Positions 4,760 to 57,604 are shown, counted from the stretch's first letter. The stretch is DNA of 64,000 nt from a virus (IMGVR_UViG_2866816733_000004:32001-96000), one strand, 5' to 3'. A program made the numbers and translations. The notes: generated by a model from the letters alone, not told the origin.

Positions 4760-5071
4760 ATGGCGTACGGTCCACGCTCCGCCCGCACATCCCCGCTGCC
4801 ATCGGACTGGGAAAGTTATCGTCGGCCAGCTGTGCTCGAGCGCGACGGGTACGTATGCCAGTGGGAGATCAGCAGGGACGGCACGAGGTGCGGCCGTCCA
4901 GCGACGGACGTCGACCACATGGGTGCGGCCGATGACCACCGCCTCGAGCTCCTGCGTGCGCTGTGCGGGCCGCATCATCGGCGTCGCTCCGGCGCGCAGG
5001 GTGCCGAGGCGATGCACGCGCGGAAGATCCCTCGGCAGCGGCCAGTGGAGCGGCATCCGGGTCTGCTGTGA
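4760..5071 (+). CDS. packaging-associated HNH endonuclease
   Basis: VLERDGYVCQ..RC...ATDVDH...LRALCGPHH; immediately upstream of the cos/terS region. Confidence 0.85.
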   Translation: MAYGPRSARTSPLPSDWESYRRPAVLERDGYVCQWEISRDGTRCGRPATDVDHMGAADDHRLELLRALCGPHHRRRSGAQGAEAMHARKIPRQRPVERHPGLL

Positions 5072-5223
5072 CCGGGTCCCGCCTGCCTATGCGGCCTTTG
5101 GTGATCATGGTGAGGCGATGGGCTGGCGCCAGTACGTTGAGGACGTCGTGAGGCATGCGGCGATCACGGCCGGGTGATCACGGCGGTGGCGATCTTGAAG
5201 GAGTGATCATGGCGACGATGACC

Positions 5224-5451
5224 CAAGATCAACTCTGTCAAGATCAAAGTCACGCTCCATGCAACCGGGCAAACCGAACATTTCTCGCACCAAGATCATA
5301 ACCTGGGGGATATCCCCAAGATCATCCACTTCCCGCTCCGGCAGGGTATTGGCGCCGCCCACGCCTACGGGTCTGGGGCCTTGATCAACTAGCATCCATT
5401 TGATCATCATCGTTCCTTGATCTTGTTTCGGAGGGATGGTGACTGATCATG
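5224..5451. other. putative cos/packaging region with CAAGATCA repeats; candidate cohesive end near 5339-5349
   Basis: Non-coding gap between HNH and terS; CAAGATCA at 5224, 5239, 5291, 5317; inverted copy at 5418-5425; palindrome GGGGATATCCCC at 5306-5317. Confidence 0.55.
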
Positions 5452-5904
5452 GCTGGACGCGGCCCCGCCCCCAAGCCCGCTGATCGCCGGGCACGCGCCA
5501 ACAAGGACACCGTCGGGCAGACGGTGCTGCGGTTCGAGCGCGCCGCACAGCCCGAGCTTCCCGACGACGTGGACTGGCATGACCGGACCCGGGACTGGTG
5601 GGCGATGTGGGGCCGGTCGGCGCAAGCCGAGACGTTCACCGCGACCGACTGGTCGTTTCTGCTGGACACGGCACTGATGCATCACGCGATGTGGAGCAAG
5701 GGGCAGTGGACCCTCGCTGCTGAGGTCCGGCTGCGGGTCGCGAAGTACGGGGCGACCCCTGAGGATCGCGCGAGGCTGAGGATGGTCTTCGCGGACGCGG
5801 ATGAGAAGGACGAGAAGCGTGCTGCGAAGGCGGGCGCGTCGGCGCGGGAGCGGTACGGGAAGCTGCGGGTGCTGCCGGCCGGTAAGGCGTCCGGGGGCGA
5901 GTAG
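5449..5904 (+). CDS. terS: terminase small subunit
   Basis: MAGRGPAPKP...WW..W...TDWSFLLDTA..H...AAEVRLRVAKYGATPEDRARLR; upstream of terL. Confidence 0.88.
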   Translation: MAGRGPAPKPADRRARANKDTVGQTVLRFERAAQPELPDDVDWHDRTRDWWAMWGRSAQAETFTATDWSFLLDTALMHHAMWSKGQWTLAAEVRLRVAKYGATPEDRARLRMVFADADEKDEKRAAKAGASARERYGKLRVLPAGKASGGE

Positions 5905-7577
5905 TGCCCTGGCGCGGCCCGGAGTACCCGGGGGAGCTCCCGACGCTCGGCTACTACGCGCTGGACTGGTTCGCGGAGATGCTGATCGTCCCGGATGGTC
6001 CGGCGGCGGGGCAGCCGCTGGTGTTCACGCCGGAGCAGGCGCAGTTCGTTCTGGATTTCTACGCGGTGGATCCGCGGTTCGAGGGACCCGCGATCCGCGG
6101 CAGGGCGCTGGTGAACGCGCGGCGGATCCGGCGGGCGGTGTTGTGCCGGCCGAAGGGGCACGGGAAGTCGCCGCTGCTGGGTGCGCTGTGTCTGCTGGAG
6201 ACGCTCGGCGAGGTGGTGCTGGACGGCTGGGACGCCGATGGGGAGCCGGTGGCGCGGCCGTGGACGTCGCTGGGCTTCAAGGCCAAAGCACAGATCGTCG
6301 CTGTCAGCGAGGACCAGACGACGAATACGTGGGATCCGCTGCTGGAGATGGCCCGGAATGGGCCGGTGTACGACGAGTACGACATCGAGCCGATGGAGAC
6401 GTTTGTGAACGTCCCGCGCGGCCGGATCGAGTACACGACGTCGTCGGCGGTGTCGCGTGAGGGGTTCCGGCCGGTGTTCGCGGCGATGGACCAAACCGAG
6501 TCGTGGGTGAAGTCGAACGGCGGGCTGAACTTGGCGGCGTCGATCCGCCGGAACCTGGCGAAGGTGAACGGGTCGTCGGTGGAGACCCCGAACGCGTGGG
6601 TGCCTGGTCTGGACAGCGTCGCGGAGAAGTCGCATCAGGCGTGGCAGCAGCAGGTCGAAGGCCGCCTGAAGGGCGACGACGGGATCCTGTTCGACCACCG
6701 CGAGGCGCCACCGGACACCAACCCGGCCGACCGGGACTCGCTGATGGCGGGCCTGCGGGTCGCCTACGGCGATTCCGGGGACCTCAACGGCGGGCACGTG
6801 AACCTTGAGCGGATCTTGCAGGACTACTGGGATCCGGCGACGGACCCCGGTGAGGCCCGCCGGTTCTACCTGAATCAGATCGCGCCGGCGACGGACGCAT
6901 GGTCGACGCCACAGGAGTGGGCGGCGTGCGCCGACCCGACTGTGGTGGTCCCAGACAGCGCCGAGATCGTGCTGTTCTTCGACGGGTCCAAGTCCTCCGA
7001 CGCCACGGCGCTGATCGGATGCGACATGGAGACAGGGCATGTCTTCGACGCGGGCGTGTGGGAACCCGACCCCGGCGACCTGGACGACCAGGTGCCGGTG
7101 CATGAGGTCGACGCTGCGGTCGCGCGGGCGTTCGAACGGTGGCAGCCGGTGGCGTTCTTCGGCGACGTGCGGGAGTGGGAGTCGTTCGTCCACACGCTGT
7201 GGCCGGAACGGTACGGCGACCGGCTGCTGGTGATGGCGAACCCGCGGGGTCGGAACGCGGGGCCGGTCGCGTGGGACATGCGGTCGCGGACGCGGGACTT
7301 CACGCTCGCCGCGGAGACGTGCCACACCGAGATCGAGCAGCGGCAGTTCACTCATGACGGGTCGTCGCCGGTGGCGAGGCATGTGGCGAATGCGCGGCGG
7401 CGCCCGAATCGGTACGGCGTGTCGGTCGGGAAGGAGTCGCCGCGCTCGCCGTTGAAGATCGACGCGGCGGTGTGCGTGATCGGCGCGCGGATGGTCCGCC
7501 GGATCGTGCTGACCTCCCCTGAGTGGGCGAAGCGGACGAAGAAGAAAACCCGGACCGGCCGCGTCTACGGGTTCTAG
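5904..7577 (+). CDS. terL: terminase large subunit
   Basis: Walker A RPKGHGKSP, Walker B-like AAMDQTE, nuclease FFDGSKSSDAT and KIDAAV. Confidence 0.95.
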   Translation: MPWRGPEYPGELPTLGYYALDWFAEMLIVPDGPAAGQPLVFTPEQAQFVLDFYAVDPRFEGPAIRGRALVNARRIRRAVLCRPKGHGKSPLLGALCLLETLGEVVLDGWDADGEPVARPWTSLGFKAKAQIVAVSEDQTTNTWDPLLEMARNGPVYDEYDIEPMETFVNVPRGRIEYTTSSAVSREGFRPVFAAMDQTESWVKSNGGLNLAASIRRNLAKVNGSSVETPNAWVPGLDSVAEKSHQAWQQQVEGRLKGDDGILFDHREAPPDTNPADRDSLMAGLRVAYGDSGDLNGGHVNLERILQDYWDPATDPGEARRFYLNQIAPATDAWSTPQEWAACADPTVVVPDSAEIVLFFDGSKSSDATALIGCDMETGHVFDAGVWEPDPGDLDDQVPVHEVDAAVARAFERWQPVAFFGDVREWESFVHTLWPERYGDRLLVMANPRGRNAGPVAWDMRSRTRDFTLAAETCHTEIEQRQFTHDGSSPVARHVANARRRPNRYGVSVGKESPRSPLKIDAAVCVIGARMVRRIVLTSPEWAKRTKKKTRTGRVYGF

Positions 7578-7601: not shown

Positions 7602-10337
7602 GTGGCGCTCTCCGACGTGGAAGCACCGGATACGGCGAAGAGTCTGCTGGCGTTGCGGGAGGACGAGCAGCGCCGCCTGTCGAAGATTACCGCGTACATG
7701 GGTGGCAGGCAGGACAGCGTGTACGTGCCGCGCGGCGCCCGGCAGGAGTACCGGTGGCTGATCAAACGCGCGAAGGTCAACATTCTGCCGCTTGTGGTGA
7801 CGGTGGTCGCCCAATCGCTGTTCGTGGACGGGTACCGGCCAGAGCGCACTGATAAGAACGCGAGGGCTTGGGAGTACTGGCAGGCCAACCGGATGGACGG
7901 TCGGCAGCACGGCTTGCATCGGGCGACGTTGAAGTACGGGGTGGCGTACACGCTGGTGCTTCCGGGGCAGCTCGCGGAGCAGCCGATGCCGGTGATCACG
8001 CCGAAGTCGCCGCGGCGGTTGACGGCGTTCTACGCCGACCCTGTCGAGGATGAGTGGCCGCTTTACGCGGTCGAGGTGAAGGTCGAGAACCAGTCGAACG
8101 GTAAGAAGCGGCAGGTCGTGTACCTGTATGACGAGAAGTCGCGGTTCACGCTCGTCGGTGATGGGAGGCCCGGCACGCCATTGGTTCTGGCCAGCGAGGA
8201 CGCGGTCGCCGAGCACGGCCTTGGCGTGTGCCCGGTGGTGCGGTACCTGAACGGCGACGACCTGGACGGCGACGAATGTGTCACCGGTGAGGTCGAACCG
8301 CTGTTCGACATGCAGGACCAGCTGAACTCGACGACGTTCGGCCGGATGATGGCCGAGCAGTTCGCGGCGTTCCGGCAGCGTTACGTGTCGGGGATGGTCG
8401 CTGAGGACGAGGAAGGCCGACCGCGGGCCCCCTTCCAGTCGGCAGTGGACCGGCTGTGGGTGGCTGAAGACGCCGATACCAAGTTCGGGGAGTTCGATCA
8501 AACCGAGCTCGGCGGATACCTGAAGAGCGCTGAGGAGACGATCCGGCACATCGCGACGGTGTCACAGACCCCACCCCACAACCTCCTCGGGCAGATGGCC
8601 AATTTGCCTCTGGCGCTCGACACGCCTGTTTTGTCACCCCACGGCCGTAGGGTGATGGGTGTGTTGAAGCCGGGTGATGAGGTATTTGCTCCTGACGGAA
8701 GCGTGGTCAGAGTCAAGGCTGTGTCGCCGGTGTTCCACGACCACGAGTGCTATCGAATGCGGTTCGACGATGGTACTGAGGTGGTCGCTGACGCTCAGCA
8801 CCGCTGGACGACGACGCACTTTGTGAACCCGGCCAATCCGTATGGCCCGGCAAGGCATCTCACGTGCCCGGAATGCGGTTGGGTTCCGCGAGCCCGGAAG
8901 GCGCCAGCGCGTGGAGTCGCGCTCCACAGGTCCCGCTCGCACGGAATCTCCGCAGTGGCGGCGCCCAAGGGGGGTGCTCGCGAGACGTCGGTTGTGACGA
9001 CCGCCCAGATCGCTGCCAGCCTGCGCACGTCGATGGGGACGTACAACCACTTCATTCCGGTTGCCAAGCCATGGGACGGGCCTGAGCGGGACTACAGCAT
9101 CGACCCGTATGCGCTGGGGGTCTTCCTTGGTGATGGCGACCATATCCACGGCGCGATCACCAGCCACAAAGATGACGCGGAGGAGATGGCCGCTCACCTA
9201 CGTGCCTGCGGCGAGTTCGTTGATGTCTGTCCCTATGCTGACGGCAGCGATAGGCGCTACATCCGGATCCGTAATGACCGGGAGCGTTGCCCCTACGGTC
9301 ACGAACGTCCCCGCGGAACGCGTTCGGACACTGCGCGGTGCCACGAGTGCCGACGCATACGTGACCGTGGCGACTCAGAGACTCGGATCAGGGTCAACTC
9401 GACATTCAGATGGCGCTTCATGGCCCTGGACCTTCGACGGAACAAGCACATCCCGGAGGAGTACTTCCGTGGCTCCTTGAAGCAGCGCCTCGCCCTGCTC
9501 CAAGGGCTGATGGACACCGACGGGACTGTGAACCGCGGGCAAGGGTCGGTTGCAATCACCTTGCACGACGAGCGGCTGGCGCGCGACCTCTACCGGCTAG
9601 TCTGCTCTTTGGGGCACAAGGTAGTCCTCCGCGAACGCCCGTGGACGTCGAAGCAACTCGTTAAGTCGGGTATCTGCTGGCGTATGACATGGGCAGCACC
9701 TGACATAGTCTTCCGCCTGGCGCGGAAGGTGGCGTTGCAGCGTACCGACTTCGGTGATGGTGACGGTGACGGGAAATCCAACAGCCCGTTCCGGCGCTAC
9801 GTTGTCGCTTGCGACCTCATACCTTCGGTCCCAGTCCGCTGTATCACCGTGGACTCTGACGATCACCAGTTCTGTGTAACTGATTCCTTTGTCCCGACCT
9901 GCAACTCAGCTGAAGCTTTGAACGCCGCGCGTGACGGGTTGAACTCTAAGGTCGCCGAGCGGAAGAGCACGACGGGGGAGTCGCATGAGCAGACGCTTAG
10001 GCTCGCGTCGCTAGCTGCTGGGGACCAGGCGGGCTGGAGGGACACCGCAGCGCAGGTCGTGTGGCGCGACACTGAGTCCCGAAGCCTGGCGCAGACGGTT
10101 GATGCGCTCGGGAAGCTCGTGCAGATGCTGGGTGTACCTCCCGAGGTGCTCTGGGAGCGGATCCCGAACGTCACCCAGCAGGACGTGGAGCGGTGGAAGG
10201 CCGCGGCAGAGAAGGGTGACGCGATCGGCCAGCTCAACAAGATCGTCGCGAAGCAGACCGGTCGGGTCGCTGAGCTGACCGCAGCCGCGACAAGCCCCGC
10301 GCCGGTGGCGGCGGCGAACGGTGCCGTCCCAGGCTGA
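7602..10337 (+). CDS. portal protein (SPP1 gp6-like) containing an intein
   Basis: Follows terL; removing the intein restores GQMANL/SAEALNAA and gives about 478 aa. Confidence 0.92.
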   Translation: MALSDVEAPDTAKSLLALREDEQRRLSKITAYMGGRQDSVYVPRGARQEYRWLIKRAKVNILPLVVTVVAQSLFVDGYRPERTDKNARAWEYWQANRMDGRQHGLHRATLKYGVAYTLVLPGQLAEQPMPVITPKSPRRLTAFYADPVEDEWPLYAVEVKVENQSNGKKRQVVYLYDEKSRFTLVGDGRPGTPLVLASEDAVAEHGLGVCPVVRYLNGDDLDGDECVTGEVEPLFDMQDQLNSTTFGRMMAEQFAAFRQRYVSGMVAEDEEGRPRAPFQSAVDRLWVAEDADTKFGEFDQTELGGYLKSAEETIRHIATVSQTPPHNLLGQMANLPLALDTPVLSPHGRRVMGVLKPGDEVFAPDGSVVRVKAVSPVFHDHECYRMRFDDGTEVVADAQHRWTTTHFVNPANPYGPARHLTCPECGWVPRARKAPARGVALHRSRSHGISAVAAPKGGARETSVVTTAQIAASLRTSMGTYNHFIPVAKPWDGPERDYSIDPYALGVFLGDGDHIHGAITSHKDDAEEMAAHLRACGEFVDVCPYADGSDRRYIRIRNDRERCPYGHERPRGTRSDTARCHECRRIRDRGDSETRIRVNSTFRWRFMALDLRRNKHIPEEYFRGSLKQRLALLQGLMDTDGTVNRGQGSVAITLHDERLARDLYRLVCSLGHKVVLRERPWTSKQLVKSGICWRMTWAAPDIVFRLARKVALQRTDFGDGDGDGKSNSPFRRYVVACDLIPSVPVRCITVDSDDHQFCVTDSFVPTCNSAEALNAARDGLNSKVAERKSTTGESHEQTLRLASLAAGDQAGWRDTAAQVVWRDTESRSLAQTVDALGKLVQMLGVPPEVLWERIPNVTQQDVERWKAAAEKGDAIGQLNKIVAKQTGRVAELTAAATSPAPVAAANGAVPG
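8607..9905 (+). mobile_element. class-3-type intein (433 aa) with LAGLIDADG homing endonuclease
   Basis: Starts PLALDTPV; block B ADAQHRW; LAGLIDADG motifs LGVFLGDG and LQGLMDTDG; block F VRCITVD; ends VPTCN followed by Ser+1. Confidence 0.92.
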
Positions 10338-11370
10338 GCAGGCGGCGCTCACCGCCGCCTATGTCGCCGAGCAGAGGCTGCTGGCGGCGTCGCTGTCCCG
10401 TGACCTGGTGCTGCTTGTACGGCAGATCTTCAGCGTCGCTGATCCGGGGCAGTCGTGGCCGACGACGAAGCTGGCACTCGACACGCTTATACGGGAGCGG
10501 CGCCGCCAGTCAGCGAACCTGGCAGCGCGCTACTACGTCGACCTGCGGCAGCTGGCTGTCCCGCAGTCACCGCTGAGGCGCGAGGCGGCGATCTACGAGG
10601 CGCGCAGGCGCCAGTTCCGACCAGAGGTGCGCGTGGATCCCGGAACGGGACTCGTACACACCCGGCTCGCGTCCGCCGCCGAAGTCTCGGAGGCGACTCG
10701 GACCATTGAGGCTCCTCTGCCTGAACAGCCTCGCCCAGAGGGTGCGCCTGCCGAACTGGACGGTTTCGCGGACATCAGCGAGGAAGACGCGTGGGCGGAA
10801 CTGGAGAAAATCGCACCGATCACGCTTGAGGACATCGAAGAGCTCGACGAGGATCGGGTCGACGCGAACCTCAACGCCACGGGGGTCGCCTCCTACAAGA
10901 AGGCGATCCGGGCGGGGCAGCCCCCGGAGAGGGCCCGCGACACCATGGCGGTCAACCTGGCGGGGTCGGCGGCCACGCTGGCCCTTGAGGGCGGACGCGA
11001 AACCATCCGCAGCGCCGTCCTGGGCGACGACGAAGCCATCGGCTGGGCGCGTGTTACCGACGCCGACCCGTGTGCTTTCTGCGCGATGCTCGCTTCCCGC
11101 GGCGCCGTCTACCGGTCCAGGCAGACCGCGGGCGGGGCGAAGAACAAGCAGTTCGAGGGCGAAGGAATGTTCAAGTTCCACAATCATGACGGCTGCTCCG
11201 CGGTCCCGGTCTTTGACGCCGATGATCCCGTCCTCGAGGAAGCCGAACGGCTGTACGACAAGTGGCTTGAGGTCACCCGCGCAGCTCCAGGCGAGAAGAT
11301 GATCGACGCGTGGACGAAGTACTGGGATAACCGTGAAGACAAACCCAGACCCGAAACAGCCACCGGGTGA
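10321..11370 (+). CDS. capsid maturation/MuF-like head morphogenesis protein
   Basis: GWARVTDADPCAFCAMLASRG...FHNHDGC.AVP motif; follows portal. Confidence 0.82.
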   Translation: MPSQAEQAALTAAYVAEQRLLAASLSRDLVLLVRQIFSVADPGQSWPTTKLALDTLIRERRRQSANLAARYYVDLRQLAVPQSPLRREAAIYEARRRQFRPEVRVDPGTGLVHTRLASAAEVSEATRTIEAPLPEQPRPEGAPAELDGFADISEEDAWAELEKIAPITLEDIEELDEDRVDANLNATGVASYKKAIRAGQPPERARDTMAVNLAGSAATLALEGGRETIRSAVLGDDEAIGWARVTDADPCAFCAMLASRGAVYRSRQTAGGAKNKQFEGEGMFKFHNHDGCSAVPVFDADDPVLEEAERLYDKWLEVTRAAPGEKMIDAWTKYWDNREDKPRPETATG

Positions 11371-11915: not shown

Positions 11916-12536
11916 TTGTCCGAGAACGCCCCCGAGCCTGTCGCGCCCGCTGAACCGGCGCAGCCGGCAGAGCCCGCCACCGAGCCCGCGCCAGCACAAC
12001 CCGGCGAGGTCGAGCAGCCGTCCACCGACCCCGGCAAGGGCGAGGAGAAGGACTGGGAGGCCGAGGCCGCCAAGTGGAAGAGCATGGCCCGCAAGCACGA
12101 AACCGAGGCCAAGAAGAACGCCACCGCGGCGCAGAAATACGCCGAGTGGGAGGACACCCAGAAGTCCGAGCAGCAGCGGCTTGCCGACAGGGTCGCCGCC
12201 GCTGAGGCCGAACGGGACGACGCTCGCCGCAGCCACGCCCAGCTCATGGCCGCGGCAACGCACAACGTCCCTCCGTCGCTCATCGACCGGATCGGCGGAT
12301 CGACTGCCGACGAGATCAACGAGTCGGCGGAGGCGCTGGCCGCTGAGATCACCCGCCTGGTGCAGGAACGCGCGTCTGGGATCGCTCCAGCGCCTGCACC
12401 GGCGCCGGAGCCCAAGTCGGCTCCGGCCGCGACGCGGCCAGTGGAATCGCTAACACCCGGTGCGCGACCGGCAAACGAGGCACCTGCTGACCCCAACGAG
12501 GCGTTCCGCAGCTTCTTGACGAGCCGCCGCACCTGA
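11916..12536 (+). CDS. capsid scaffolding protein
   Basis: TTG start after GGGAG; Pro/Glu-rich N-terminus, DWEAEAAKWKSMARKHE, KSEQQR coiled coil; upstream of capsid gene. Confidence 0.85.
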   Translation: MSENAPEPVAPAEPAQPAEPATEPAPAQPGEVEQPSTDPGKGEEKDWEAEAAKWKSMARKHETEAKKNATAAQKYAEWEDTQKSEQQRLADRVAAAEAERDDARRSHAQLMAAATHNVPPSLIDRIGGSTADEINESAEALAAEITRLVQERASGIAPAPAPAPEPKSAPAATRPVESLTPGARPANEAPADPNEAFRSFLTSRRT

Positions 12537-12613: not shown

Positions 12614-13576
12614 GTGGCCTACAACGACATCATCAGCCGGGACGCGTCCAACGACCCGCTGATCCCGACCCCGGTCTCCGCGCAGATCCTGCAGGAGATG
12701 CCGACCGAGTCGTTCATCCTGCAGCGGGCCGGCCAGGTCCGCATGTCCACAAAGTCTCAGCGGCAGCCGGTCCTGGACGTGCTTCCTCGCGCCTACTGGG
12801 TGTCGGGCGACACCGGCCTGAAGCAGACCAGCGCGGTCGACTGGAAGAACGTGACCCTGGTCGCCGAAGAACTCGCGGTGATCGTCCCGATCCCCGAGGC
12901 ATATCTCGACGACGCGCAGGTCCCAATCTGGGATGAGGTCCGACCCCGGATCGTGGAAGCGCTCGGCAAGGCGATCGACTCGGCCTGCCTGTTCGGAGTC
13001 GACAAGCCCTCCTCATGGCCGGCCGACATCTACTCCTCCGTGGTCGCGGCCGGTAACACGGTCCGGATCGGCACGGGAGAGGACTTCGGCGTCGACGTCG
13101 CAAACCTCGGCGAGAAGATCGCCAAGGACGGCTTCGCCGTCAACGGGTTCGCATCACGGCCTGGCCTGAAGTGGAAGCTGGTGGGGCTCCGTTCCACGGA
13201 CGGGATCCCAATCTACCAGCCGGACCTGCAGAACGGCGGCGGCGGAAACCTATACGGATACGGCCTGTCGGAAGTCATCAACGGATCCTGGGACTCCGAC
13301 GAGGCCGAACTGATCGCTGGCGACTGGTCCAAGTGCGTGATCGGCATGCGGCAGGACATGAGCTGGAAGACCTTCACCGAGGGCGTCATCTCTGACGCCG
13401 ACGGCAAGGTCATCCTGAACCTCATGCAGCAGGACTCGATGGCGCTGCGAGTCGTCATGCGGCTGGGATACGCGACGTCCAACCCTGTGACGGCGCTGAA
13501 CACCGACGCCAACACTCGCTTCCCGTTCGGCGCGGTCCAGGCGGCCACCGCCGACAACGTCGCCGGCTCGGCCTGA
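12614..13576 (+). CDS. major capsid protein (HK97 fold)
   Basis: AYWV..G.K, LVAEELAVIVPIPE, IAGDWS, NLMQQDSMALRVVMRLG. Confidence 0.93.
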   Translation: MAYNDIISRDASNDPLIPTPVSAQILQEMPTESFILQRAGQVRMSTKSQRQPVLDVLPRAYWVSGDTGLKQTSAVDWKNVTLVAEELAVIVPIPEAYLDDAQVPIWDEVRPRIVEALGKAIDSACLFGVDKPSSWPADIYSSVVAAGNTVRIGTGEDFGVDVANLGEKIAKDGFAVNGFASRPGLKWKLVGLRSTDGIPIYQPDLQNGGGGNLYGYGLSEVINGSWDSDEAELIAGDWSKCVIGMRQDMSWKTFTEGVISDADGKVILNLMQQDSMALRVVMRLGYATSNPVTALNTDANTRFPFGAVQAATADNVAGSA

Positions 13577-16352: not shown

Positions 16353-17024
16353 GTGGCTGGTTCTGCCTACGACGACATTCAGCAGCGGAACGCCGCGCTG
16401 ATCTTCAAGGCCCTGCAGGGGTCGGTGTTCACCGCGCCGTCCACCGCAGCGGCCATCACCAACCTCACCGACTCCGGTGACAAGCTCCTGAAGGCGCTGC
16501 CCACCGGATACGAGGATGTCGGCTGGACGTCCGATGACGGCGCCCAGTTCGGCCGCGACGTCGACACTTCCGACATCACCGGCTGGGGCAGCGTGGAGCC
16601 GCTGCGGTCCGACGTCAACTCCGATGTGACGACGTTGCAGATCGCGTGCCTGGAGACCAAGAAGGCCACAATCGGGCTGTACACGGGCGCGGACATGGCC
16701 GCTGCGACCCCGGATCCTGTGTCCGGTGAGCTCAGCATCGAGAAGCCGGCCCGTCCCTCGTTCCGCTACTACCGGGTCATCGCGATTGCGGTGGACCTCA
16801 CCGACGACGGCGAATACTACGTCGCACGGTTCCTCCCGCGCGCCCGCGTCACCGACTTCGATGAGCAGGCGATGCAGTCCAGCGACGACAGCCCTCTGAC
16901 CTGGGCCGTCACCCTCACCTCGTACCAGGACGCCACGCTCGGCTACAGCGAGCGGTACATCTTCGGTGGGCCGGGCTGGGCGACGCGCTTGGCCTCGATG
17001 GGCTTCGACGCCCTCGCCAGCTGA
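16353..17024 (+). CDS. major tail (tube) protein
   Basis: LPTGYEDVGWTSDDG, ITGWGSVEPLRSD, ARFLPRA. Confidence 0.9.
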   Translation: MAGSAYDDIQQRNAALIFKALQGSVFTAPSTAAAITNLTDSGDKLLKALPTGYEDVGWTSDDGAQFGRDVDTSDITGWGSVEPLRSDVNSDVTTLQIACLETKKATIGLYTGADMAAATPDPVSGELSIEKPARPSFRYYRVIAIAVDLTDDGEYYVARFLPRARVTDFDEQAMQSSDDSPLTWAVTLTSYQDATLGYSERYIFGGPGWATRLASMGFDALAS

Positions 17025-38416: not shown

Positions 38417-38419
38417 GCC

Positions 38420-38605: not shown

Positions 38606-38627
38606 GGGGGTCCCCCATCGAATTCTG

Positions 38628-39594: not shown

Positions 39595-39654
39595 CGGTGG
39601 GGAGTCGTCTGCCCGTTGGCCGCTGTCGGTCCCGTCTTGTTACGAGGATGAAGC

Positions 39655-40656: not shown

Positions 40657-40694
40657 CCTCCGGATCGCATGGGGATGCCGCGATTTCCCAATCC

Positions 40695-43345: not shown

Positions 43346-43819
43346 TCAGATGATGCGGAGTTCGCGGAGGAACTCTCGCCAGATCGGCTCCAGGTTGCGG
43401 AGGTCCGCGAGTTCACGTGGGGTTCGCCAGGTGAGGTCGTGGAGTTCGCCGTTGGAGCGGACCTTCGGCGGCTGCGGGCCGGTGAAGAGCGTGGTGAACA
43501 CCAGCCAGTGGTGCCAGTTCTCGCCGTCGATGGACCCGGCTTTGCGGTGGCAGCGGTCGCCTCCGAGCCGGTTCAGGACGAGACTCAGGTCGCGGTCCCG
43601 GACGCGTAGACCGGTCTCCTCTTCCAACTCGCGGACGCCGGCGGCGCGGAACGCGGGCTCCTCTTCATGGGCCCCGGTCGGGATGCGGGTGGCGAGTTCG
43701 TCGACGTGCCCGGCGCACGGCGCGACCGCCACCGGGGTTTTCGCGCGCAGGCCGGTGAGGTAGCGGCCTTCCCAGACGGCGAGGACGCCGACTACAGCGT
43801 GGTTGCAGGGATCTCCCAT
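43346..43819 (-). CDS. NUDIX hydrolase
   Basis: PCAGHVDE...AAGVRELEEETGL (Nudix box with an insertion). Confidence 0.8.
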   Translation of the reverse strand: MGDPCNHAVVGVLAVWEGRYLTGLRAKTPVAVAPCAGHVDELATRIPTGAHEEEPAFRAAGVRELEEETGLRVRDRDLSLVLNRLGGDRCHRKAGSIDGENWHHWLVFTTLFTGPQPPKVRSNGELHDLTWRTPRELADLRNLEPIWREFLRELRII

Positions 43820-44034
43820 CACGACACCCGGTGGATCTTGATGCGGCCGATGCGGAACATCCACTCGTTGGTAGGGCCGTCCTTCTTGACGCGGGACGGT
43901 ATGTAGACGACGTCGTCGGCCCTATCCGGGTTGGTGGTGTCGGCTTCGAGTTGCTCGACGTCTCTTGGGGGTAGGTCGGCGTACAGGGTCTGGGCGGGCC
44001 CGTTGGCGGGCCGGAACTCAATCTCGATCTTCAA
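43819..44034 (-). CDS. hypothetical protein
   Basis: 71 aa, AGGAG RBS. Confidence 0.5.
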   Translation of the reverse strand: MKIEIEFRPANGPAQTLYADLPPRDVEQLEADTTNPDRADDVVYIPSRVKKDGPTNEWMFRIGRIKIHRVS

Positions 44035-46499: not shown

Positions 46500-47507
46500 T
46501 CAGTCCTGGGTGACGAACTCCTTGTCGCCGGCGCCCTGACGGGCCTGGTAGGCGTCCTTGACGACCATGTCGGCTTCGAGTTCGGCGTGTGCGTCGTCGA
46601 ACGCGGCGGTCAGATGGCTGGCCAGATCCTGGGCGAGGGCGAGCTTGTCGATGACCGCTCCACTGACCCCGGCGTTCCGCATCGTCGAGATCGATATCTC
46701 GGTCGATGCCACTGCGGCCCCCGACTGGGTGGCCATCTCCTGGGTCCACCGCAGTGCGGCGATCAGGTTGGTGGTTTCTCCGGACACGATGTCCTCCTTG
46801 GTGATTGGTGGGGTGGAGCCTTTGCTGCGCCACCGGCTCAGGTCGGTGACGGTCCCTCCGGAGGCCTTGCCGCTGGCGGTGACTTCCTTGTCCTCCTGCT
46901 CGGGGACCACGGGCGGCGCGGCGGCTTGACGGGCTGCGGTGTCCGCCTTCTGCCGGGCGGTCTCCGTCTCCCAGCAGCTGCGGCACGCGAGGACGGTGCC
47001 CTCCGGGGCATGTGAAAGGTGGAGTGGTCGGAGGTTGGCCAGCCGGAACTCGTGGTTGCACAGGTAGCAGCGGGCATCTGGCGCTTGAGGCGCTTCGGCC
47101 GTGGGATCAGCGGACGGCCCCGCCGAAGGCCTTGCAGAAGCCTTAGCGGAGGGTGCGGGGGCCTGGTCGTCGACGGAGGGGTCCATGCGCTCGTTGATCT
47201 CGTAGGCATGATCCTCGGCGTCGGCGAGATCCTTCTTCGCCCATTTGCTGCGGCGACGCGCGGCGGCTCTCTTCGCCATCCGGGCTCGCCGCTCATCGGC
47301 GGACGCGCAGGCATCCGACCAGGCGTTGGCGAAGAACCGTCGGCCCGGGCCCCCACCCGAACTGCCCTTACTTCGCTTCCAACGCTCTTGCTCGCGCCGG
47401 AAACTCGGCGGGTCTTCCCCGCGGGCCTTCCACGACAGGTCCTGGACGGTGTTGCGGGTCAGGTAGTAGGCGATCCACAACGCCAGCAGCAGGTCGAAAC
47501 CCATCAC
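46500..47507 (-). CDS. transfer-region protein upstream of traB
   Basis: N-terminal hydrophobic segment, CxxC...CxxC, C-terminal GETT...VKDAY....AGDKEFV. Confidence 0.62.
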   Translation of the reverse strand: MMGFDLLLALWIAYYLTRNTVQDLSWKARGEDPPSFRREQERWKRSKGSSGGGPGRRFFANAWSDACASADERRARMAKRAAARRRSKWAKKDLADAEDHAYEINERMDPSVDDQAPAPSAKASARPSAGPSADPTAEAPQAPDARCYLCNHEFRLANLRPLHLSHAPEGTVLACRSCWETETARQKADTAARQAAAPPVVPEQEDKEVTASGKASGGTVTDLSRWRSKGSTPPITKEDIVSGETTNLIAALRWTQEMATQSGAAVASTEISISTMRNAGVSGAVIDKLALAQDLASHLTAAFDDAHAELEADMVVKDAYQARQGAGDKEFVTQD

Positions 47508-48894
47508 GACTCCCCAAGATCGGAGACGAACGCGGCGACCTTGGTGTTGACCGTTTCCACTGCGTCCCCGCCGGTCTTCCCGAGGGACCCGCCGATCACT
47601 AGGGCCAGCAGTGTTGGCATCACGACCGCGGCGAACTGGGCGCCCTTGTCGGCCTGCTTGTCGAAGGAGATGTCGGCGACGGCGATCCCGACCATGATGA
47701 TCGTCACCGCGACCGACACCGCGAGCACCAAGTCCGGCTCGTCGGCGAGGTCAGCCGCGCCCTTCCCCACAAACGACACCGAGCCAGCGACCCCCTTGCC
47801 GACAACGGTGTGGGCCAGACCACACCCGGCAGTCGCGGCCAGCAGCATCGTGATGACAGCTACGGCCTTGGCGTTGCGCTGCGAGTTCACTCGCTTGTTG
47901 AACACGTACAGCGTCGCCAGACCGGCGAGCAGCACAACCCATCCCATGATGGTTCCTCCTTTGCTTTAGATGAGCCACGACAGTGGCGGGGCGTGGGACA
48001 GCAGCCACAGCAGCAGCAGCGCCGCGGCGAGCCGGGAAGGTCGCTCGGCGATCCACTCGATGACGGCGCATATCGCGATGGCGGGGAGCGCGACGGTGAG
48101 GGCGTACACCTGGCCGACCTTGCGGGCGGCGCCGTCCTCGGTGGTCCACTCGCCGCGGGTCGTGTACGCCCACACCTTCGCGAGGCCTGCGCGGTCCTTC
48201 GACCACACGTCCGGTGGGGTGAAGGTGACGCGGACCCACGCGGTGACCTCCGCCAGATAGTCACGCGCTGTGATCGTCGAGGTTTCCGCACTGTCGGGTT
48301 GTGACTGTGCGGCTTCGGGGTTACTCTCGCGCGCACCTGCGCGCGTTGCGCGTTGGGTTTCTCCCTCGGGCAGAAAGTCACTGTGCGGACCGCACTGTGC
48401 GGACTGTGCGGTCCCCCGCTCAGGCTCACTGTGTGTCGCCGTCACCGGCTCCTCCTTCCGTCTTGCGGTACAGCCGGTTCCCGGCGTCCACGAGCATTTG
48501 CACGAGCCGTTCAGCGCCTTGCGGGTCCGGGTGGGCCGCGAGCCCGGCCCGGTAGTGATCGGCTGCGATCATGACCCTCGCCCGCGGATCTGTGGTCGCG
48601 GCGAGCGCCTCGTTCAGGCGTTGCAGGCGGCGGGGGAACCGGGCCGTTCGGCGCATCGGCTTGCCCTTCGCGCGGCGGCTACCGGCCACCGGTGCCACCG
48701 CCCGCCAACTGCAACACGGCGATGACCGCGACCAGGACCAGCAGCACGGCTCCGGCCATGAGCAGCGGACGGACCAGAGCGGCGCTCGGCACCGCTAGGG
48801 CGACGATCAAGAACCAGGTGAACGTCGCACCAGCCGCGGACCACACCGCGGCGATCTTGAACCCCGCCTTCGAAGGGAATCGCTGGACGATCAC
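47504..48894 (-). other. four coupled small genes, mostly Spd-like membrane proteins (47504-47947, 47966-48445, 48426-48698, 48679-48894)
   Basis: Hydrophobic multi-TM ORFs between the DUF2637-like gene and traB. Confidence 0.6.
48289..48435. repeat. ACTGTGCGG direct repeats (candidate clt/TraB-recognition repeats)
   Basis: Perfect copies at 48304, 48380, 48394, 48403; degenerate copies near 48290 and 48428. Confidence 0.6.
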
Positions 48895-50273
48895 TGGTTC
48901 ACCGCCTCCTGGTTCGCGTCCTGGTTCACGAGTTCGCGTGCCTCGGTGAGCCGGTTGTAGGCGGTGGTTTTGGTGAACCCGAGGCGTTCGCGAACCACCC
49001 CGAGGGTCACCGCATCCCTGCCGAATTCACGGATGAGGTTCACGACTAGTTGAACCTCGGCGGTCTTCTTCGCCGCACGGTCAGGGAGGTTCGCGGTGCT
49101 ATGAACCTGGTGGGCCTGCTTGGTTCGCGGTTCGGCAGGGGGTTCTTGAACCTGTGGTTCAAGAACCTCGGTTCGCGTTCCCTGCTTCGCCGTGGGCGGT
49201 TCAAGTTCGCGAGGCTGGTGAACCTGAACCTTCGCTGGGCGAGGTTCGTGAACCTGCTCCGCGACTGGTTCGTGAACCTCCACCTGAACCGGCCTTTGTA
49301 CCTCGGCGCGAACCTCGACCCGCGTCGGCGTGAACTCCACGGGCGTGAACTGCCGTCCCTGAACCATGAACCCGGTTCGCTGAACCAGTGACGTAAACCC
49401 CGCCCATGGCGCCTCCGGGGTCAGGTTCGCGAGCGCGTCCGCGTTGTACATCGACCCGAGTTGGGCGATGAGCGCTTGCTGCCGGGCCGGGTCTGCGGCG
49501 AGGCCAGCGTGCGCGACCGCAGACAGCATCGCCCGGTCGAGGCGGTGCTTGGCGAGGTCGATCCGCCAGTCCCGTGCGTCATCCCGGCGGAGTCCACGGA
49601 CCTTAGCGGCGGCCTTGGCGACGCGGGTGAGGCGCCGGTGCGCGTCGACCTCGGAGGCGGTCCGGCCAGACGGCTCCGCGATGCGAAGCCACACTAGGAC
49701 CCGCTCCGGGGTGAGCCGCAGGTGGATCGTGGAGCCGCCGCGGGCCCGGCGACGTTCGATCGACATGCCCCGTTCCCACAGCCACGCTGCCAGCAGAGGC
49801 ATCGCGAGCCGGAACGCCGCCTCGGGCCACTCGTCGGCGTCGGTTGCGGAGAACGCGCCGGACAGGGCGGTGACGACCCACACGGCTATCCCGTCGATGC
49901 CGGCCTTGGCGTCCTCGGGGATCTCGGCCTCGCGGATGTTGCGGCGGGCCCGCATCGCGCACGTGAACGTCACCAACTCGAGGACAGCGAACGCGACGAT
50001 GCGGAGCTCGACAGGGAAGTCGAGGATGTCGCGGAAGAACCGCCACATGCCCTGCGCGGCAATACCGGCGGCGATCACGGCGACGACGAACGTGAGCCGG
50101 TTCTCCAGACTCGCCTTCGCCTCAGGCGCCCCATCGGTCTTGCGCTTGGCGGGCCGCCAAGCCAGGAACGCTTTCCAGGTGAGGACGCCGACGAGGACAG
50201 CCCCACCGGACACCAGGTACGGCCACGCGTCGGCGGCGACCGCCTCAAGTTCGGTGAGGGACGGGGCGTTCAT
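48891..50273 (-). CDS. SpdB/DUF2637-like multi-TM protein with C-terminal HTH
   Basis: About five TM segments; C-terminal VTLGVVRERLGFTKTTAYNRL. Confidence 0.72.
   Translation of the reverse strand: MNAPSLTELEAVAADAWPYLVSGGAVLVGVLTWKAFLAWRPAKRKTDGAPEAKASLENRLTFVVAVIAAGIAAQGMWRFFRDILDFPVELRIVAFAVLELVTFTCAMRARRNIREAEIPEDAKAGIDGIAVWVVTALSGAFSATDADEWPEAAFRLAMPLLAAWLWERGMSIERRRARGGSTIHLRLTPERVLVWLRIAEPSGRTASEVDAHRRLTRVAKAAAKVRGLRRDDARDWRIDLAKHRLDRAMLSAVAHAGLAADPARQQALIAQLGSMYNADALANLTPEAPWAGFTSLVQRTGFMVQGRQFTPVEFTPTRVEVRAEVQRPVQVEVHEPVAEQVHEPRPAKVQVHQPRELEPPTAKQGTRTEVLEPQVQEPPAEPRTKQAHQVHSTANLPDRAAKKTAEVQLVVNLIREFGRDAVTLGVVRERLGFTKTTAYNRLTEARELVNQDANQEAVNQ
48896..49428. repeat. dense GGTTC/GAACC array with GGTTC-NN-GAACC palindromes inside coding sequence
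   Basis: About 15 GGTTC and 15 GAACC counted by eye in about 530 bp; palindromes at 49141, 49156, 49243, 49267. Confidence 0.88.
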
Positions 50274-50593
50274 GCCGCCTCCCGCACAGACACGGTGAGG
50301 CGGCTACGCTTCATCTTCCGGCGCTCCCGCTCCGACAGCCCGCCCCACACACCGAACCGTTCGTCGTGGGCGAGGGCGTACTCCAGGCACTCGGTCCGCA
50401 CCTCGCAGACGAAACAGGTTCGCTTCGCGGCCCGGGTGGATTCGCCCTTCTCCGGGAAGAACGCGTCCGGGTCGGTCTCGGCGCACAGGGCGCGCTCGGT
50501 CCAAGCGGGCACGTCAACGACCGGCAGGGCGGGCGGTGCGGGCGACTCCCACGGCAGTTGGACACGGACGTTGCGGGGTCGAGGCGCAGGCAT
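50270..50593 (-). CDS. whiB: WhiB-family transcription factor
   Basis: WTERALCAETDPDAFFPEKG...CFVCEVRTECLEYAL...FGVWGGLSERER. Confidence 0.95.
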   Translation of the reverse strand: MPAPRPRNVRVQLPWESPAPPALPVVDVPAWTERALCAETDPDAFFPEKGESTRAAKRTCFVCEVRTECLEYALAHDERFGVWGGLSERERRKMKRSRLTVSVREAA

Positions 50594-54785: not shown

Positions 54786-55088
54786 TCATGCCGCTCCCTT
54801 GTTCGCCTTGGCGAGCCACTGGGCGGCGAACACGTCGAAGTCCGGGTGCCGGCCTGCTCGTACCTCCGCGATGACGTCGTCGACGAACTCGCGGAGGATT
54901 AGGTGTTGGCCGCCGCACCGGCCACTCGGCCATGCGCCTGCCTGAACGCGACGGCGTACCGTCATGGTGGAGATGCCGAGGATCTGAGCGACTTCGGAGA
55001 TCGTAAGGAAGAGGGGCGACTCGTCGGATGGCGAGTCCGGCTCAACGGCGTCGACGCTCACAAGCGCGTCCTTCCCGGGGGGCGTCAT
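54786..55088 (-). CDS. excisionase-like HTH_17 protein
   Basis: FLTISEVAQILGISTMTVRRRVQAGAWP..RCGG. Confidence 0.82.
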   Translation of the reverse strand: MTPPGKDALVSVDAVEPDSPSDESPLFLTISEVAQILGISTMTVRRRVQAGAWPSGRCGGQHLILREFVDDVIAEVRAGRHPDFDVFAAQWLAKANKGAA

Positions 55089-55393
55089 GCCGCGGCCTCG
55101 ACCGGCTGGGCCACTCCCTCTTGGGCCTGGGCGATCCAGTTGGCGGCGTAGTCCTCGAAGCGGGCGCCGGACGGCGCGCTGATGAATCCGAAGACGAAGT
55201 CGCTTCGCATCCGGTAGCTGTCGCCGAACTGGACGCCGGGGAAGCGTCCTTCACGGAGCCCGCCGTAGAGGTAGGACTTGCTGACCTTGAGGACCGTCGC
55301 TGCCTCCGAGACGAGCAGGAAGGGTCCCGTGCTGCACGCGCACGGCGTGCGCTCGATGTCCTTCGCGCCCTGGAGACGCTCGGTGCTCTGCAT
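55085..55393 (-). CDS. excisionase-like HTH_17 protein (paralog)
   Basis: FLLVSEAATVLKVSKSYLYGGLREGRFPGVQFG.SYRM. Confidence 0.82.
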   Translation of the reverse strand: MQSTERLQGAKDIERTPCACSTGPFLLVSEAATVLKVSKSYLYGGLREGRFPGVQFGDSYRMRSDFVFGFISAPSGARFEDYAANWIAQAQEGVAQPVEAAA

Positions 55394-55529: not shown

Positions 55530-56309
55530 ATGCAGGGAAAGCAGGGGCGTCCTGCGTACAGGCAGATCGCGGAGGATCTCCGTGCGCAGATCGAGGATGG
55601 TTCCCTGCCGGAAGGCGCCCGCATCCCGTCCGAATCCGAGCTCGGTGCGGACTACGGGGTCTCAAGGATCGTCGTCCGAAACGCGATGGGACTCTTGGCG
55701 AGCCAGGGCCTGATCAGCAAGGAACGTGGCCGTGGATCATTCGTTCGGCACCGGGGCCCGAAAGAGACACGCATCGTCGGTGACTTCTACGGCAAGCGCC
55801 ACACGGGTTCACCGTTCGCGGCAGCCGTGAAGGCGGCTGGGCATCGACCTGAGTGGGACTACCAGACCAGAGAGACGACCGCGTCGCCCGCGGTTGCTGA
55901 GCGGCTCGGCATCGAGGGCGGCGACCCCGTCATGCGCACGACGTACACGTTTTTCAGCGATAACCAGCCCGTCATGCTGTCGACGTCGTATGAGCCGCTG
56001 GCGATCACGCGCGGGACGCCCGTCGAACATCCTGAGGCCGGGCCGATCACCGGAGTTGTCGCGCGCATGGACAGCATCGGGAAGGTCATAACGCACGTCA
56101 CCGAAGAGACTGTGGCTCGGGCGGCCAGGAACATAGAGAGGGAAGCCCTCGACGTCGCCGAGGGGACCCCGGTGTTCGCCATCACCCGGACGTACTTCGC
56201 CGGCAACCAGGCCGTAGAGACTGCGGACATCGTCGTGTCCGCGGACCGCTACAAGCTCAAGTATCGGGTGCCTCTACCTCCGCCAGGTGAGCAGCGGGAC
56301 TCGGAGTGA
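55530..56309 (+). CDS. GntR/HutC (UTRA) repressor, KorSA/TraR-like
   Basis: YRQIAEDLR..I..G.L..G.RIPSE, GRGSFVR, C-terminal UTRA domain. Confidence 0.9.
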   Translation: MQGKQGRPAYRQIAEDLRAQIEDGSLPEGARIPSESELGADYGVSRIVVRNAMGLLASQGLISKERGRGSFVRHRGPKETRIVGDFYGKRHTGSPFAAAVKAAGHRPEWDYQTRETTASPAVAERLGIEGGDPVMRTTYTFFSDNQPVMLSTSYEPLAITRGTPVEHPEAGPITGVVARMDSIGKVITHVTEETVARAARNIEREALDVAEGTPVFAITRTYFAGNQAVETADIVVSADRYKLKYRVPLPPPGEQRDSE

Positions 56310-56559
56310 TCTGTCCCGATGGTCCGTCCACTAGCCCCACCGGCCCGTAGAGCGCGAGGACGTCGGCCACCGACGAGCCGCTTCCTCGCCGACCCCAACG
56401 CAGAGGTCCCGCAAATGTGGTGCTCGAGGTGTCTGAAGCGAGATCCCGGCGATCCATGCCCCAACGATCGCCCGTACAGGCTGCGTCACGCCATGTACGA
56501 ACCCTGCAACTCCAGTGCATCATCGGCAAGTAGAGCCATTAGCTAACGCAGGAGGGGTG

Positions 56560-57207
56560 ATGATGGGCCCGACGCGATCGTGGACGGGACGAGACGCGAC
56601 CACCCTGCGGAAGGCGCTGCGCATGACCACCGACGGCTTCGCTGCACGGCTGCAGGTCGCGCCGCGGACCGTCGCGAACTGGGCCGCTCACCCGGAGATG
56701 GTGCCGCGGCTCGGAGCGCAGGACGAGCTCGACCGTCTGCTTGCCGCTGCGCCCGCTGAGGTCCAGGCGCACCTCGACGATGCCAGTGCTTCGACCGGAG
56801 TTGAGGCGGCCCAGGTGTTGCGCGTAGCGATCGCGGTCCTTGCGCACGACGGCCAGGTGCTCCTGGTCCGTCGGCGTGACGACGGCGCCGGGATCTCGTG
56901 GCAGTTCCCTGCGGGGATTATCAAGCCTGGTGAGCGTGGCGAGGACGTCGCCGTCCGTGAGACGCTCGCGGAGACCGGCGTGCACTGCTCGGTGAAGGAA
57001 CACCTTGGTAGCCGCTGCCACCCGGTGACCGGCGTCCAATGCGACTACTACCGGTGCGATTACCTGGCAGGGGACGCCTACAACCGCGACTCTGTTGAGA
57101 ACACTGGCGTGACGTGGGCGCCACAAACACAGTTGACCAAGTTCCTTTCGAGAGAGACCGTCTACCCGCCGGTACTGCGGATGCTGGAGGACACCCATGC
57201 AGCCTGA
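56560..57207 (+). CDS. XRE-HTH fused to NUDIX hydrolase
   Basis: LRKALRMT...FAARL.V..RTVANW; WQFPAGIIKPGE...AVRETLAETG. Confidence 0.85.
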   Translation: MMGPTRSWTGRDATTLRKALRMTTDGFAARLQVAPRTVANWAAHPEMVPRLGAQDELDRLLAAAPAEVQAHLDDASASTGVEAAQVLRVAIAVLAHDGQVLLVRRRDDGAGISWQFPAGIIKPGERGEDVAVRETLAETGVHCSVKEHLGSRCHPVTGVQCDYYRCDYLAGDAYNRDSVENTGVTWAPQTQLTKFLSRETVYPPVLRMLEDTHAA

Positions 57208-57604
57208 GATCGACACTCGCCCGACGATCGCGGCGGCCGTCATCGTGCAAGGTGGCCGATTCCTCCTGGTGCAGCGGGCTGTGTCCGAGGGGTCGCTGTC
57301 GTGGCAGTTCCCGGCTGGCGAGGTCGAGATCGGCGAGACGCCGGAAGACGCCGCGGTGCGGGAGACCGCCGAAGAGGCCGGCGTCACAGTGGTCGCGAAG
57401 TCGCGGCTGGGGGAGCGGATCCACCCGGCGACAGGCCGCACGATGATCTATGTCGCCTGCGAGATCGTTGAGGGTGAAGCGCATGCGGCCGACGTCGACG
57501 AGATCGCGGCTGTCCACTGGTGCCACCTCGACGAGATCGGCGACTTCGTCCCGTACGGGTTCTACGAGCCGGTGCAGTTGCACCTCGAAGCGCAGCTCGC
57601 CTGA
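57197..57604 (+). CDS. NUDIX hydrolase (pSAM2 Pif-like context)
   Basis: WQFPAGEVEIGETPEDAAVRETAEEAG; LGERIHPATGR.M.Y.AC. Confidence 0.9.
   Translation: MQPEIDTRPTIAAAVIVQGGRFLLVQRAVSEGSLSWQFPAGEVEIGETPEDAAVRETAEEAGVTVVAKSRLGERIHPATGRTMIYVACEIVEGEAHAADVDEIAAVHWCHLDEIGDFVPYGFYEPVQLHLEAQLA

Follow-up and report, generated by a model that had tools for sequence, protein, structure and literature searches.

An integrated siphovirus with Streptosporangiales-type relatives carries virion genes and a TraB-type transfer module, probably as one unit

To our knowledge, in the literature surveyed, the Streptomyces plasmid-phage pZL12 is the one characterised combination of a phage with a TraB-type conjugative replicon, and it is a plasmid; pZL12 and phage ZL12 are said to have been reported by Zhong et al. 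in 2010 (J Bacteriol 192:3747). Here we describe a stretch of 64,000 nucleotides, referred to as the window (IMGVR_UViG_2866816733_000004:32001-96000), which corresponds to positions 32001–96000 of C222, a 104,490-bp contig of a 10.2-Mb draft genome in 805 contigs. The window is probably the centre of an integrated temperate siphovirus of at least 106.9 kb that stably carries a TraB conjugation or spreading module of the kind found in integrative and conjugative elements of actinomycetes (AICEs), and we propose a mechanism for its use.

According to PMC2440964, model AICEs measure 10.9–17.3 kb. The same kinds of genes (Tra, Spd, GntR, NUDIX and Xis) are listed for AICEs (PMC2440964) and for pSVH1-type plasmids (PMC4447253); the roles of KorSA and Pif are described in the former paper, with GntR and NUDIX proteins governing donor–recipient behaviour in pSAM2, and those of TraB, clt, Spd and GntR in the latter. 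The element described here resembles AICEs in its chromosomal integration by a tyrosine integrase, its single FtsK-like Tra protein, its Spd-like proteins, its GntR (KorSA-type) and NUDIX (Pif-type) genes and its excisionase-type helix-turn-helix (HTH) genes. It differs from them in size and content, AICEs being small and devoid of virion genes whereas this element measures at least 107 kb and has a full virion and lysis set, in its integration at the 3' end of a protein gene rather than at a tRNA gene, and in that RepSA, RepAM and Prim-Pol were not recognised in it. PMC4487206 and PMC3583192 cite pZL12 as a published Streptomyces plasmid-phage with a tra locus. Like the present element, pZL12 (GQ919031; ~90 kb) combines a siphovirus virion module with an FtsK/SpoIIIE-like tra gene beside the virion genes, and has a NUDIX gene, a divergent GntR regulator and a tyrosine recombinase, the latter two ~30% identical to those of the window (30% for the regulator, pZL12.80). 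In contrast, pZL12 is a circular plasmid with ParA and ParB, whereas in the present element, which is integrated, there are att sites and an integrase of the arm type and no par gene was found; the host order differs as well, the relatives of the present element being of Streptosporangiales type. Homology to the hallmark proteins of pZL12 was considered and rejected, BLASTP E-values of 0.3–0.4 for TraB and the terminase large subunit (TerL) indicating no similarity. A pZL12-like plasmid (NZ_CP108705) encodes a TerL of 38% identity and gave no TraB match.

The junctions of the element with the host chromosome are found on C222 and on a second contig, C479. The last gene of C222 encodes an enolase-superfamily (menC-like) protein with host-like codon usage; all 18 genomes of the genus hold a single copy of it, with 81–92% identity, a count that is independent of the unpublished genomes G414, G419 and G425 included in the wider tally at order and class level. 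Positions 1–1131 of C479 encode a menB-like enoyl-CoA hydratase; the DNA that follows them is foreign and codes for an HTH protein and for a tyrosine integrase of the arm type (Arm-DNA-bind_4, SAM_3 and catalytic domain). Three relatives display the empty site, in which sequence matching C479:1–1131 lies directly before the menC-like gene. The 13-bp att core GTGGTACTACTAA, within which the menB-like gene has its stop codon, is present at C479:1118–1130 (attL) and C222:103694–103706 (attR, window 71694–71706) and nowhere else in the 10.2-Mb genome. Because the host junctions carry a duplicated att core and three relatives have the empty site, the element is, on this evidence, integrated at the 3' end of the menB-like gene, upstream of the menC-like gene, and is not a plasmid in this genome. 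It spans C479:1131 to C222:103693, i.e. at least 106.9 kb, plus the unsequenced gap between the two contigs, which neither overlap nor share a split gene (the relative's gene is matched by the C222 part alone). At its left end, C222 carries a CI-like repressor that faces an early operon running rightward (Rad52-type recombinase, DUF5131, WhiB and HNH genes), and HTH_3 repressor-like genes are present. The original prediction had allowed for maintenance as a plasmid and suggested looking for circularity and for rep or par genes outside the window: a circular contig was rejected, the ends of C222 showing no overlap, and no ParA (AAA_31), ParB_N or serine recombinase was found on C222, so that, with the host junctions, this part of the prediction is not supported for this genome. 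Its statement that the only recombinase is Cre-like holds for C222 and fails for the element, whose arm-type integrase lies on C479. A 17-bp direct repeat, GCCCGAGGGGAGCCCGG, lies at C479:1240–1256 and C222:103558–103574 (window 71558–71574), ~110 and 136 bp inside attL and attR, respectively; these are possible binding sites of the arm-type integrase.

Both the virion and the TraB modules lie inside this single attL/attR pair. We found no tRNA gene on C222, no direct repeats of at least 21 bp in either the window or the contig, no att-like repeats flanking the transfer module and no third copy of the att core with up to one mismatch on C479 or C222. The integrase that stands at the element's end is part of the phage immunity end, and the recombinase of the tra block has no detectable att repeats. 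A nested AICE with att sites of its own, which was considered as a candidate, was rejected for want of a tRNA gene, repeats, a third core or a conserved site beside the recombinase. The prediction of one element with no obvious att boundary between its modules is thereby upheld: where a separate att-flanked AICE might have been seen, the opposite was found. Altogether, the two modules very probably form one heritable unit.

The layout recurs in other genomes. Relatives encoding TraB and TerL were found by a scan with a TraB alignment, using one genome per species, and the other co-linear elements that the original prediction proposed to look for were recovered in a metagenome contig (G427:C1), in Actinomadura sp. 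CNU-125 and in a complete chromosome of the same genus (G294), as well as, in part, in an IMG/VR contig (L034). The first two are contigs of ~95 kb that carry both genes. The metagenome contig (96,738 bp, 68.6% G+C) is co-linear with the present element throughout: its terminase small subunit (TerS) and TerL genes, head, tail, holin, XRE, TROVE and tyrosine recombinase genes, TraB block and right arm follow one another in this order, with identities of 49–51% for TerL, 70–85% for the head and tail proteins, 82% for the capsid, 72% for the holin and 53% for TraB. The right arm is followed by a 610-aa large serine integrase, against a tyrosine integrase here, and then by a repressor, early genes and glycosyltransferases. 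Since this integrase/attP region is internal, the copy appears to be un-integrated. Its ends, when joined, align without loss to window ~5400–5450, directly before terS, and show no terminal overlap. The contig therefore looks like a complete genome whose ends lie at the packaging site or close to it, or else the ends could be an assembly break; if it is complete with packaging-site ends, the tra block would be part of the unit genome. Note that this record (CAZYSQ010000001.1; L090–L094), a 68.6% G+C actinophage genome, is filed in a bin labelled Acholeplasmataceae, an assignment that looks like a binning error in the public record. The CNU-125 contig (95,313 bp) keeps the early genes and the right arm, much of its virion module being different; identities are 45–47% for TerL, 80% for Ro60, 59% for the recombinase, 78% for NUDIX and 52% for TraB. 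In G294, a prophage of more than 100 kb displays TerS, holin and recombinase proteins each 82% identical to those of the window, the 460-aa membrane protein at 66%, and a more distant TraB in the same position (E = 2.7e-37 with the TraB profile). In the stretch of L034 that was read, the gene for a TraB of 36% identity converges on those for a holin (52%), a minor tail protein and a tape measure. As it is seen across different integrases, integration sites and partly swapped virion genes, the association appears persistent.

The TraB-bearing relatives belong to Actinomadura, Actinoallomurus, Nocardiopsis, Marinactinospora and Trebonia, and since one genome of the same genus is an Actinomadura, the host is most likely an Actinomadura too. 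The G+C content is ~67%, and a gene call based on codon usage gives short, densely packed genes across nearly the whole of C222. In IMG/VR, TraB alone gave no match and an alignment of five TraB sequences retrieved L034. Some TerL relatives had no TraB match in the single-protein search; because that search also missed G294, the TraB counts among TerL relatives are lower bounds.

By gene content, the region of the window between 37.4 and 57.6 kb is an AICE-type module, with TraB, membrane proteins, WhiB, excisionase-type HTH, GntR-UTRA and NUDIX genes (Table 1). The genes announced for it by the original prediction (TraB, Spd-like, Xis-like, GntR and NUDIX) were recovered by profile, Pfam, NCBIfam and transmembrane (TM) matches, as was, by Pfam, the WhiB gene that it had placed within the transfer region. 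A profile built from 13 TraB homologues matches the FtsK/SpoIIIE-type EccC (4nh0, 7e-16), FtsK (2ius, 2e-5) and HerA; the Walker A motif, GDTGSGKS, and the acidic Walker B residues are invariant in the 13 sequences. The top NCBIfam match is the plasmid TraB family NF041214 (plasmid_TraB; 1.1e-11, residues 247–713), of which, by its score, the protein is a distant relative only. In tblastn searches, 81 actinomycete plasmids gave matches to proteins ~26–32% identical, and the 50,697 phage records gave no match. The protein shares with the TraB of Streptomyces plasmids (pSVH1, pIJ101) the order of membrane anchor, FtsK-like ATPase and C-terminal winged helix-turn-helix (wHTH), and, as with clt, short repeats cluster near its gene. 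The profile matches, the invariant Walker motifs and a repeat array at a conserved position make it look functional. Upstream of traB, TM segments are predicted in proteins of 143, 80, 71 and 460 aa; the 334-, 143- and 80-aa proteins belong to no Pfam family, and their order beside traB is common to G141 (a chromosome discussed below), the metagenome contig, CNU-125 and L034. The 460-aa protein has homologues in G141, the metagenome contig and G294, and its closest ESM Atlas clusters carry DUF2637 (score 0.94, taken as a lead only). By position, the divergent GntR-UTRA regulator may be a KorSA/TraR-like protein and the two NUDIX hydrolases that follow it may be Pif-like; the NUDIX gene or genes at this place match, at 54% identity, a gene beside TraB in the free-standing element of G079.

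The strongest cluster of any 5-mer on the contig also lies in this module: GGTTC/GAACC occurs 31 times in 570 bp (48859–49428), often as GGTTC-NN-GAACC, against a contig mean of 1.4 per 500 bp (SD 2.0). The array is contained in the 3' half of the gene for the 460-aa protein, 2.4 kb upstream of traB, and two relatives with a TraB ~53% identical to that of the window, G141 and the metagenome contig, have the same motif arrayed at the same position. Loci with a more distant TraB display other motifs, CGGACC-type in G294 and G011 and GGGAC/TCCCA in G079 and the IMG/VR contig; thus, repeat arrays are found at several, not all, TraB loci and their motif varies with the TraB lineage. As a simple marker of TraB, the GAACC array was rejected, since CNU-125 encodes a TraB of 52% identity and lacks a strong array. 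We favour the view that the array is the clt, i.e. the recognition locus of TraB; a replication origin, or a site for the 460-aa protein itself, are alternative candidates. Described clt loci are 8-bp repeats read by the C-terminus of the cognate TraB (PMC4447253). Compared to the demonstrated 8-bp direct repeats of Streptomyces plasmids, the repeat of the window has a 5-bp core, often within a 12-bp palindrome, and lies inside another gene at a distance from traB.

The virion and lysis genes (window 5.4–31.1 kb) make up a siphovirus module for packaging, head, tail and lysis that is apparently intact, as had been predicted; the assignments rest on TerL, PHROGs, CHAP and holin matches. The hallmark genes of a tailed temperate phage are present: those for the terminase, the portal, a capsid of HK97 type along with its protease and scaffold, the tail tube, the tape measure and lysis. 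TerL has tblastn matches in 2042 phage records, the closest in the phage collection (~51%) being those of the McProf-type Mycobacterium prophages (BK061309 and relatives), in which the terminase gene likewise lies tens of kb from the start of the deposited record; these prophages differ in their size (~67 kb) and in having no TraB match. Directly 5' of terS, and reaching into it, is an array of AAGATCA-type repeats (window ~5150–5460), GATCA/TGATC occurring 19 times between 5102 and 5485, with several overlapping pairs, versus ~1.6 expected per 500 bp. The metagenome relative retains these motifs, and the ends of its contig fall ~130 bp past the array, which is a candidate packaging (cos/pac) region recognised by terminase. 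The portal gene is about twice the usual length, and its middle part matches intein-bearing terminase PHROGs; the insertion is likely intein-like.

Between the lysis genes and the tra block, relatives retain a block of XRE, methyltransferase and Ro60 genes. The Ro60/TROVE-vWA gene (34963–36603, minus strand) is complete; its product has counterparts of 80% identity in CNU-125 and 70% in G118, and in the metagenome relative the same position is taken by a TROVE protein. Rfam at gathering thresholds detected no family in the window, and hence no Y RNA by that route. The internal Xer/Cre-like recombinase is 82% identical to its counterpart in G294, 59% in CNU-125, 41% on a Nocardiopsis plasmid (G214) and 28–31% in pZL12-type plasmid-phages, and we propose that it may be a resolvase or circularisation enzyme rather than a chromosomal integrase. 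Its surroundings contain weak short palindromes at most, and no firm lox/dif-like site; short-word BLAST of the flanks against the right arm gave chance-level matches only, in this genome and in G141, and no conserved non-coding site was found beside the gene in the four elements compared. Upstream of it lies a stretch of lower G+C (0.60–0.62; 38417–40694), with two long open reading frames (ORFs) on the minus strand (38728–39594 and 39655–40656) that have no Pfam match and poor codon scores.

Table 1. Genes and gene groups of the window, in window coordinates (aa, amino acids; values are E-values unless stated otherwise)
Feature	Position	Strand	Basis
TerS	5449-5904	+	phrog_1897 6.7e-16; 82% identical in G294 prophage
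TerL	5904-7577	+	tblastn, 51% identity to annotated TerL of Mycobacterium prophages
Portal, large internal insertion (intein-like)	7602-10337	+	phrog_104 3.9e-108, split in two stretches
Head maturation protease	10321-11370	+	phrog_193 4.3e-50
Scaffold	11916-12536	+	phrog_1793 9e-16
Major capsid protein	12614-13576	+	phrog_10 5e-47; 82% identical in metagenome relative
Major tail protein	16353-17024	+	phrog_476 2.8e-61
Tape measure, 1629 aa	18088-22977	+	phrog_4197 5.5e-112
Dit and minor tail proteins	22991-28463	+	phrog_5577/33, phrog_1885
CHAP-domain endolysin	30025-30663	+	Pfam CHAP 2.1e-10
Holin	30735-31079	+	phrog_9752 1.7e-19
XRE-DUF5753 regulator; S-adenosylmethionine (SAM) methyltransferase; Ro60/TROVE-vWA	33212-36603	+; -; -	Pfam
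Xer/Cre-like tyrosine recombinase	37367-38416	-	Pfam Phage_integrase and SAM_1; NCBIfam XerD/XerC-like, below cut-off
NUDIX hydrolase downstream of traB	43346-43822	-	Pfam 1.3e-8; 78% identical in CNU-125, 50% in G141
TraB-like double-stranded DNA translocase, 716 aa	44347-46497	-	N-terminal hydrophobic segments, FtsK/HerA-type ATPase, C-terminal wHTH
Conserved 334-aa protein with 143-aa (3-4 TM) and 80-aa (2 TM) membrane proteins	46500-48208	-	Spd-like candidates
460-aa membrane protein (3-4 N-terminal TM), DUF2637-like, SpdB2-like candidate	48891-50273	-	TM prediction
WhiB-family regulator, inside transfer block	50270-50512	-	Pfam Whib 3.7e-26
Two excisionase-type HTH_17 genes	54786-55393	-	1.1e-7 (54786-55088) and 2.8e-4
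GntR-UTRA (HutC-type) regulator, divergent	55530-56309	+	Pfam GntR 9e-18, UTRA 1.3e-17
Two NUDIX hydrolases	56560-57207, 57197-57604	+	Pfam 1.4e-14, 4.6e-22
Right-arm accessory genes: weak BRO-N and toxin-antitoxin-like cassettes	59132-63094		Bro-N 2.8e-4
MazF/PemK toxin	62744-63094		PemK_toxin 4.8e-8

As to the accessory genes of the right arm, three toxin–antitoxin-like pairs and a BRO gene had been predicted: the MazF toxin is solid, a PIN match is marginal (0.0095) and the rest of the pairs are not solid, and the BRO match is weak. Farther along, the right arm encodes a protein-kinase-like protein (L003:4150–4929, window 64150–64929) and an ATP-dependent DNA ligase (L003:6337–7317, window 66337–67317), the latter 49% identical to a ligase encoded 9 kb from TraB in G079. 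Similarly, the DUF5131 gene of the early region (L001:11136–12023, the same positions on the contig) shares 61% identity with a gene that G393 carries 10 kb from TraB, and WhiB-domain genes are common to early regions and TraB loci. These resemblances suggest that genes move between phage early regions and AICE or plasmid backbones.

How could such an element use both modules? Each functional step in what follows, spread by conjugation included, is one that we infer. Excision by the integrase would give a circular double-stranded DNA (dsDNA) with two possible routes. By the first, it would be packaged from the cos/pac site just upstream of terS and released by lysis. By the second, a membrane-anchored TraB hexamer would bind the circle, probably through the C-terminal wHTH at the GGTTC/GAACC array, and would pump dsDNA into a neighbouring hypha, the Spd-like membrane proteins then spreading it across septa. 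The GntR-UTRA regulator would act as a Kor/TraR-type brake, the NUDIX proteins would mediate a Pif-like block on transfer between lysogens, and the internal Xer-like recombinase would resolve or circularise transferred or replicated DNA. That virion spread and conjugative spread both work is possible, if somewhat doubtful.

Several observations weigh against this interpretation. The TraB match to NF041214 scores 43.9 bits, against a curated equivalog cut-off of 800 bits, and the single sequence has no Pfam FtsK_SpoIIIE match, only a weak one to its C-terminal wHTH. In those module ORFs that were scanned, Pfam and NCBIfam recognised no AICE-type replication initiator (RepSA, RepAM or Prim-Pol). 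The putative clt sits in a gene whose product may itself bind the array, as RepAM binds repeats inside its own gene (PMC2440964), and CNU-125 has no strong array. In the G141 chromosome, the block from recombinase to GntR stands without any virion gene within 20 kb, and that genome gave no TerL match; related TraB and recombinase genes are found on a complete 68-kb plasmid of Nocardiopsis dassonvillei (G214) and on other plasmids, and other TraB loci that were read also have no virion genes within 20 kb. Because homologous modules occur without virion genes, the transfer module can be exchanged between types of elements. The join between C479 and C222 is not contained in the sequence. Finally, the length of the element (107 kb or more) surpasses that of the 96.7-kb relative by ~10% and may be too great for the capsid to hold.

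Among the other explanations, the one that survives best, unlikely though we consider it, is that the TraB/Spd module serves the phage within a single mycelium, carrying DNA of the phage or prophage past septal cross-walls once infection or induction has occurred, whereby a single infection could lysogenise or exploit many compartments. Its retention in at least four related phage genomes, where it adjoins the lysis genes, fits such a role; the GntR and NUDIX regulators, in contrast, are typical of conjugative elements and govern donor–recipient behaviour in pSAM2 (PMC2440964), and close homologues reside on plasmids as well as on a chromosomal element that has no virion genes in its vicinity. 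A role within the mycelium and conjugation are, moreover, compatible with each other. It is improbable that an independent element derived from an AICE or plasmid was inserted in or beside an unrelated prophage, the two being mere neighbours that move separately. Free-standing homologous modules (Xer-like recombinase, NUDIX, TraB, Spd-like, Xis-like and GntR genes) do exist in G141, such modules also lie on the complete Nocardiopsis plasmid, and the virion and tra genes differ in identity level between relatives, i.e. the elements are mosaic; however, the module has neither att-like repeats around it nor a third att core, the genes on both its sides are common to relatives with other integrases and integration sites, and it is present in the un-integrated 96.7-kb metagenome relative. 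To about the same small degree, the element might be a decaying prophage/AICE mosaic, immobile by either route: its excess length over the complete relative, the large insertion in the portal and the fragmented draft assembly (805 contigs) point that way, whereas the core virion genes, integrase, repressors and traB are all full-length frames with conserved catalytic motifs, and the att sites are intact. Least probable of all is an extrachromosomal phage-plasmid using its Xer/Cre-like recombinase as P1 uses Cre, since the relatedness of that recombinase (28–31%) to those of pZL12-type plasmid-phages, which also carry GntR, NUDIX and FtsK-like tra genes, and the assembly of the metagenome relative without host flanks are contradicted, for this assembly, by the host junctions, duplicated att core and arm-type integrase and by a contig with no end overlap, ParA, ParB or serine recombinase.

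An integrated temperate siphovirus with a TraB module thus remains the reading that we prefer. We tentatively extend it to a family of temperate siphoviruses of ~97–107 kb, infecting Streptosporangiales (Actinomadura and relatives), that may be at once integrating prophages and TraB-type conjugative elements, the same tra-bearing DNA being packaged in virions and pumped as dsDNA between hyphae. The concept of a phage that is also a conjugative replicon is already known from pZL12; what is new is that the element is integrated, that its lineage differs and that it recurs as a family. Our literature search found no paper combining prophage, AICE, TraB and terminase. The integrating version recurs in several genomes, including that of a named strain, Actinomadura sp. 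CNU-125, with the integrase and part of the virion genes varying and the layout being kept. At least one large survey (PMC7969092) looked for conjugation genes by means of a tool based on genes for relaxases and mating-pair formation, and because of this design a tool of that type would miss single-protein TraB systems; AICE and prophage finders, for their part, may split or mislabel such elements. If the proposal is true, the phage would gain a second route of horizontal spread that is free of lysis and independent of receptors. This opens the question of whether these are phages that conjugate past the limits of receptor specificity and lysis, or phages that use conjugation proteins to spread through a compartmented mycelium.

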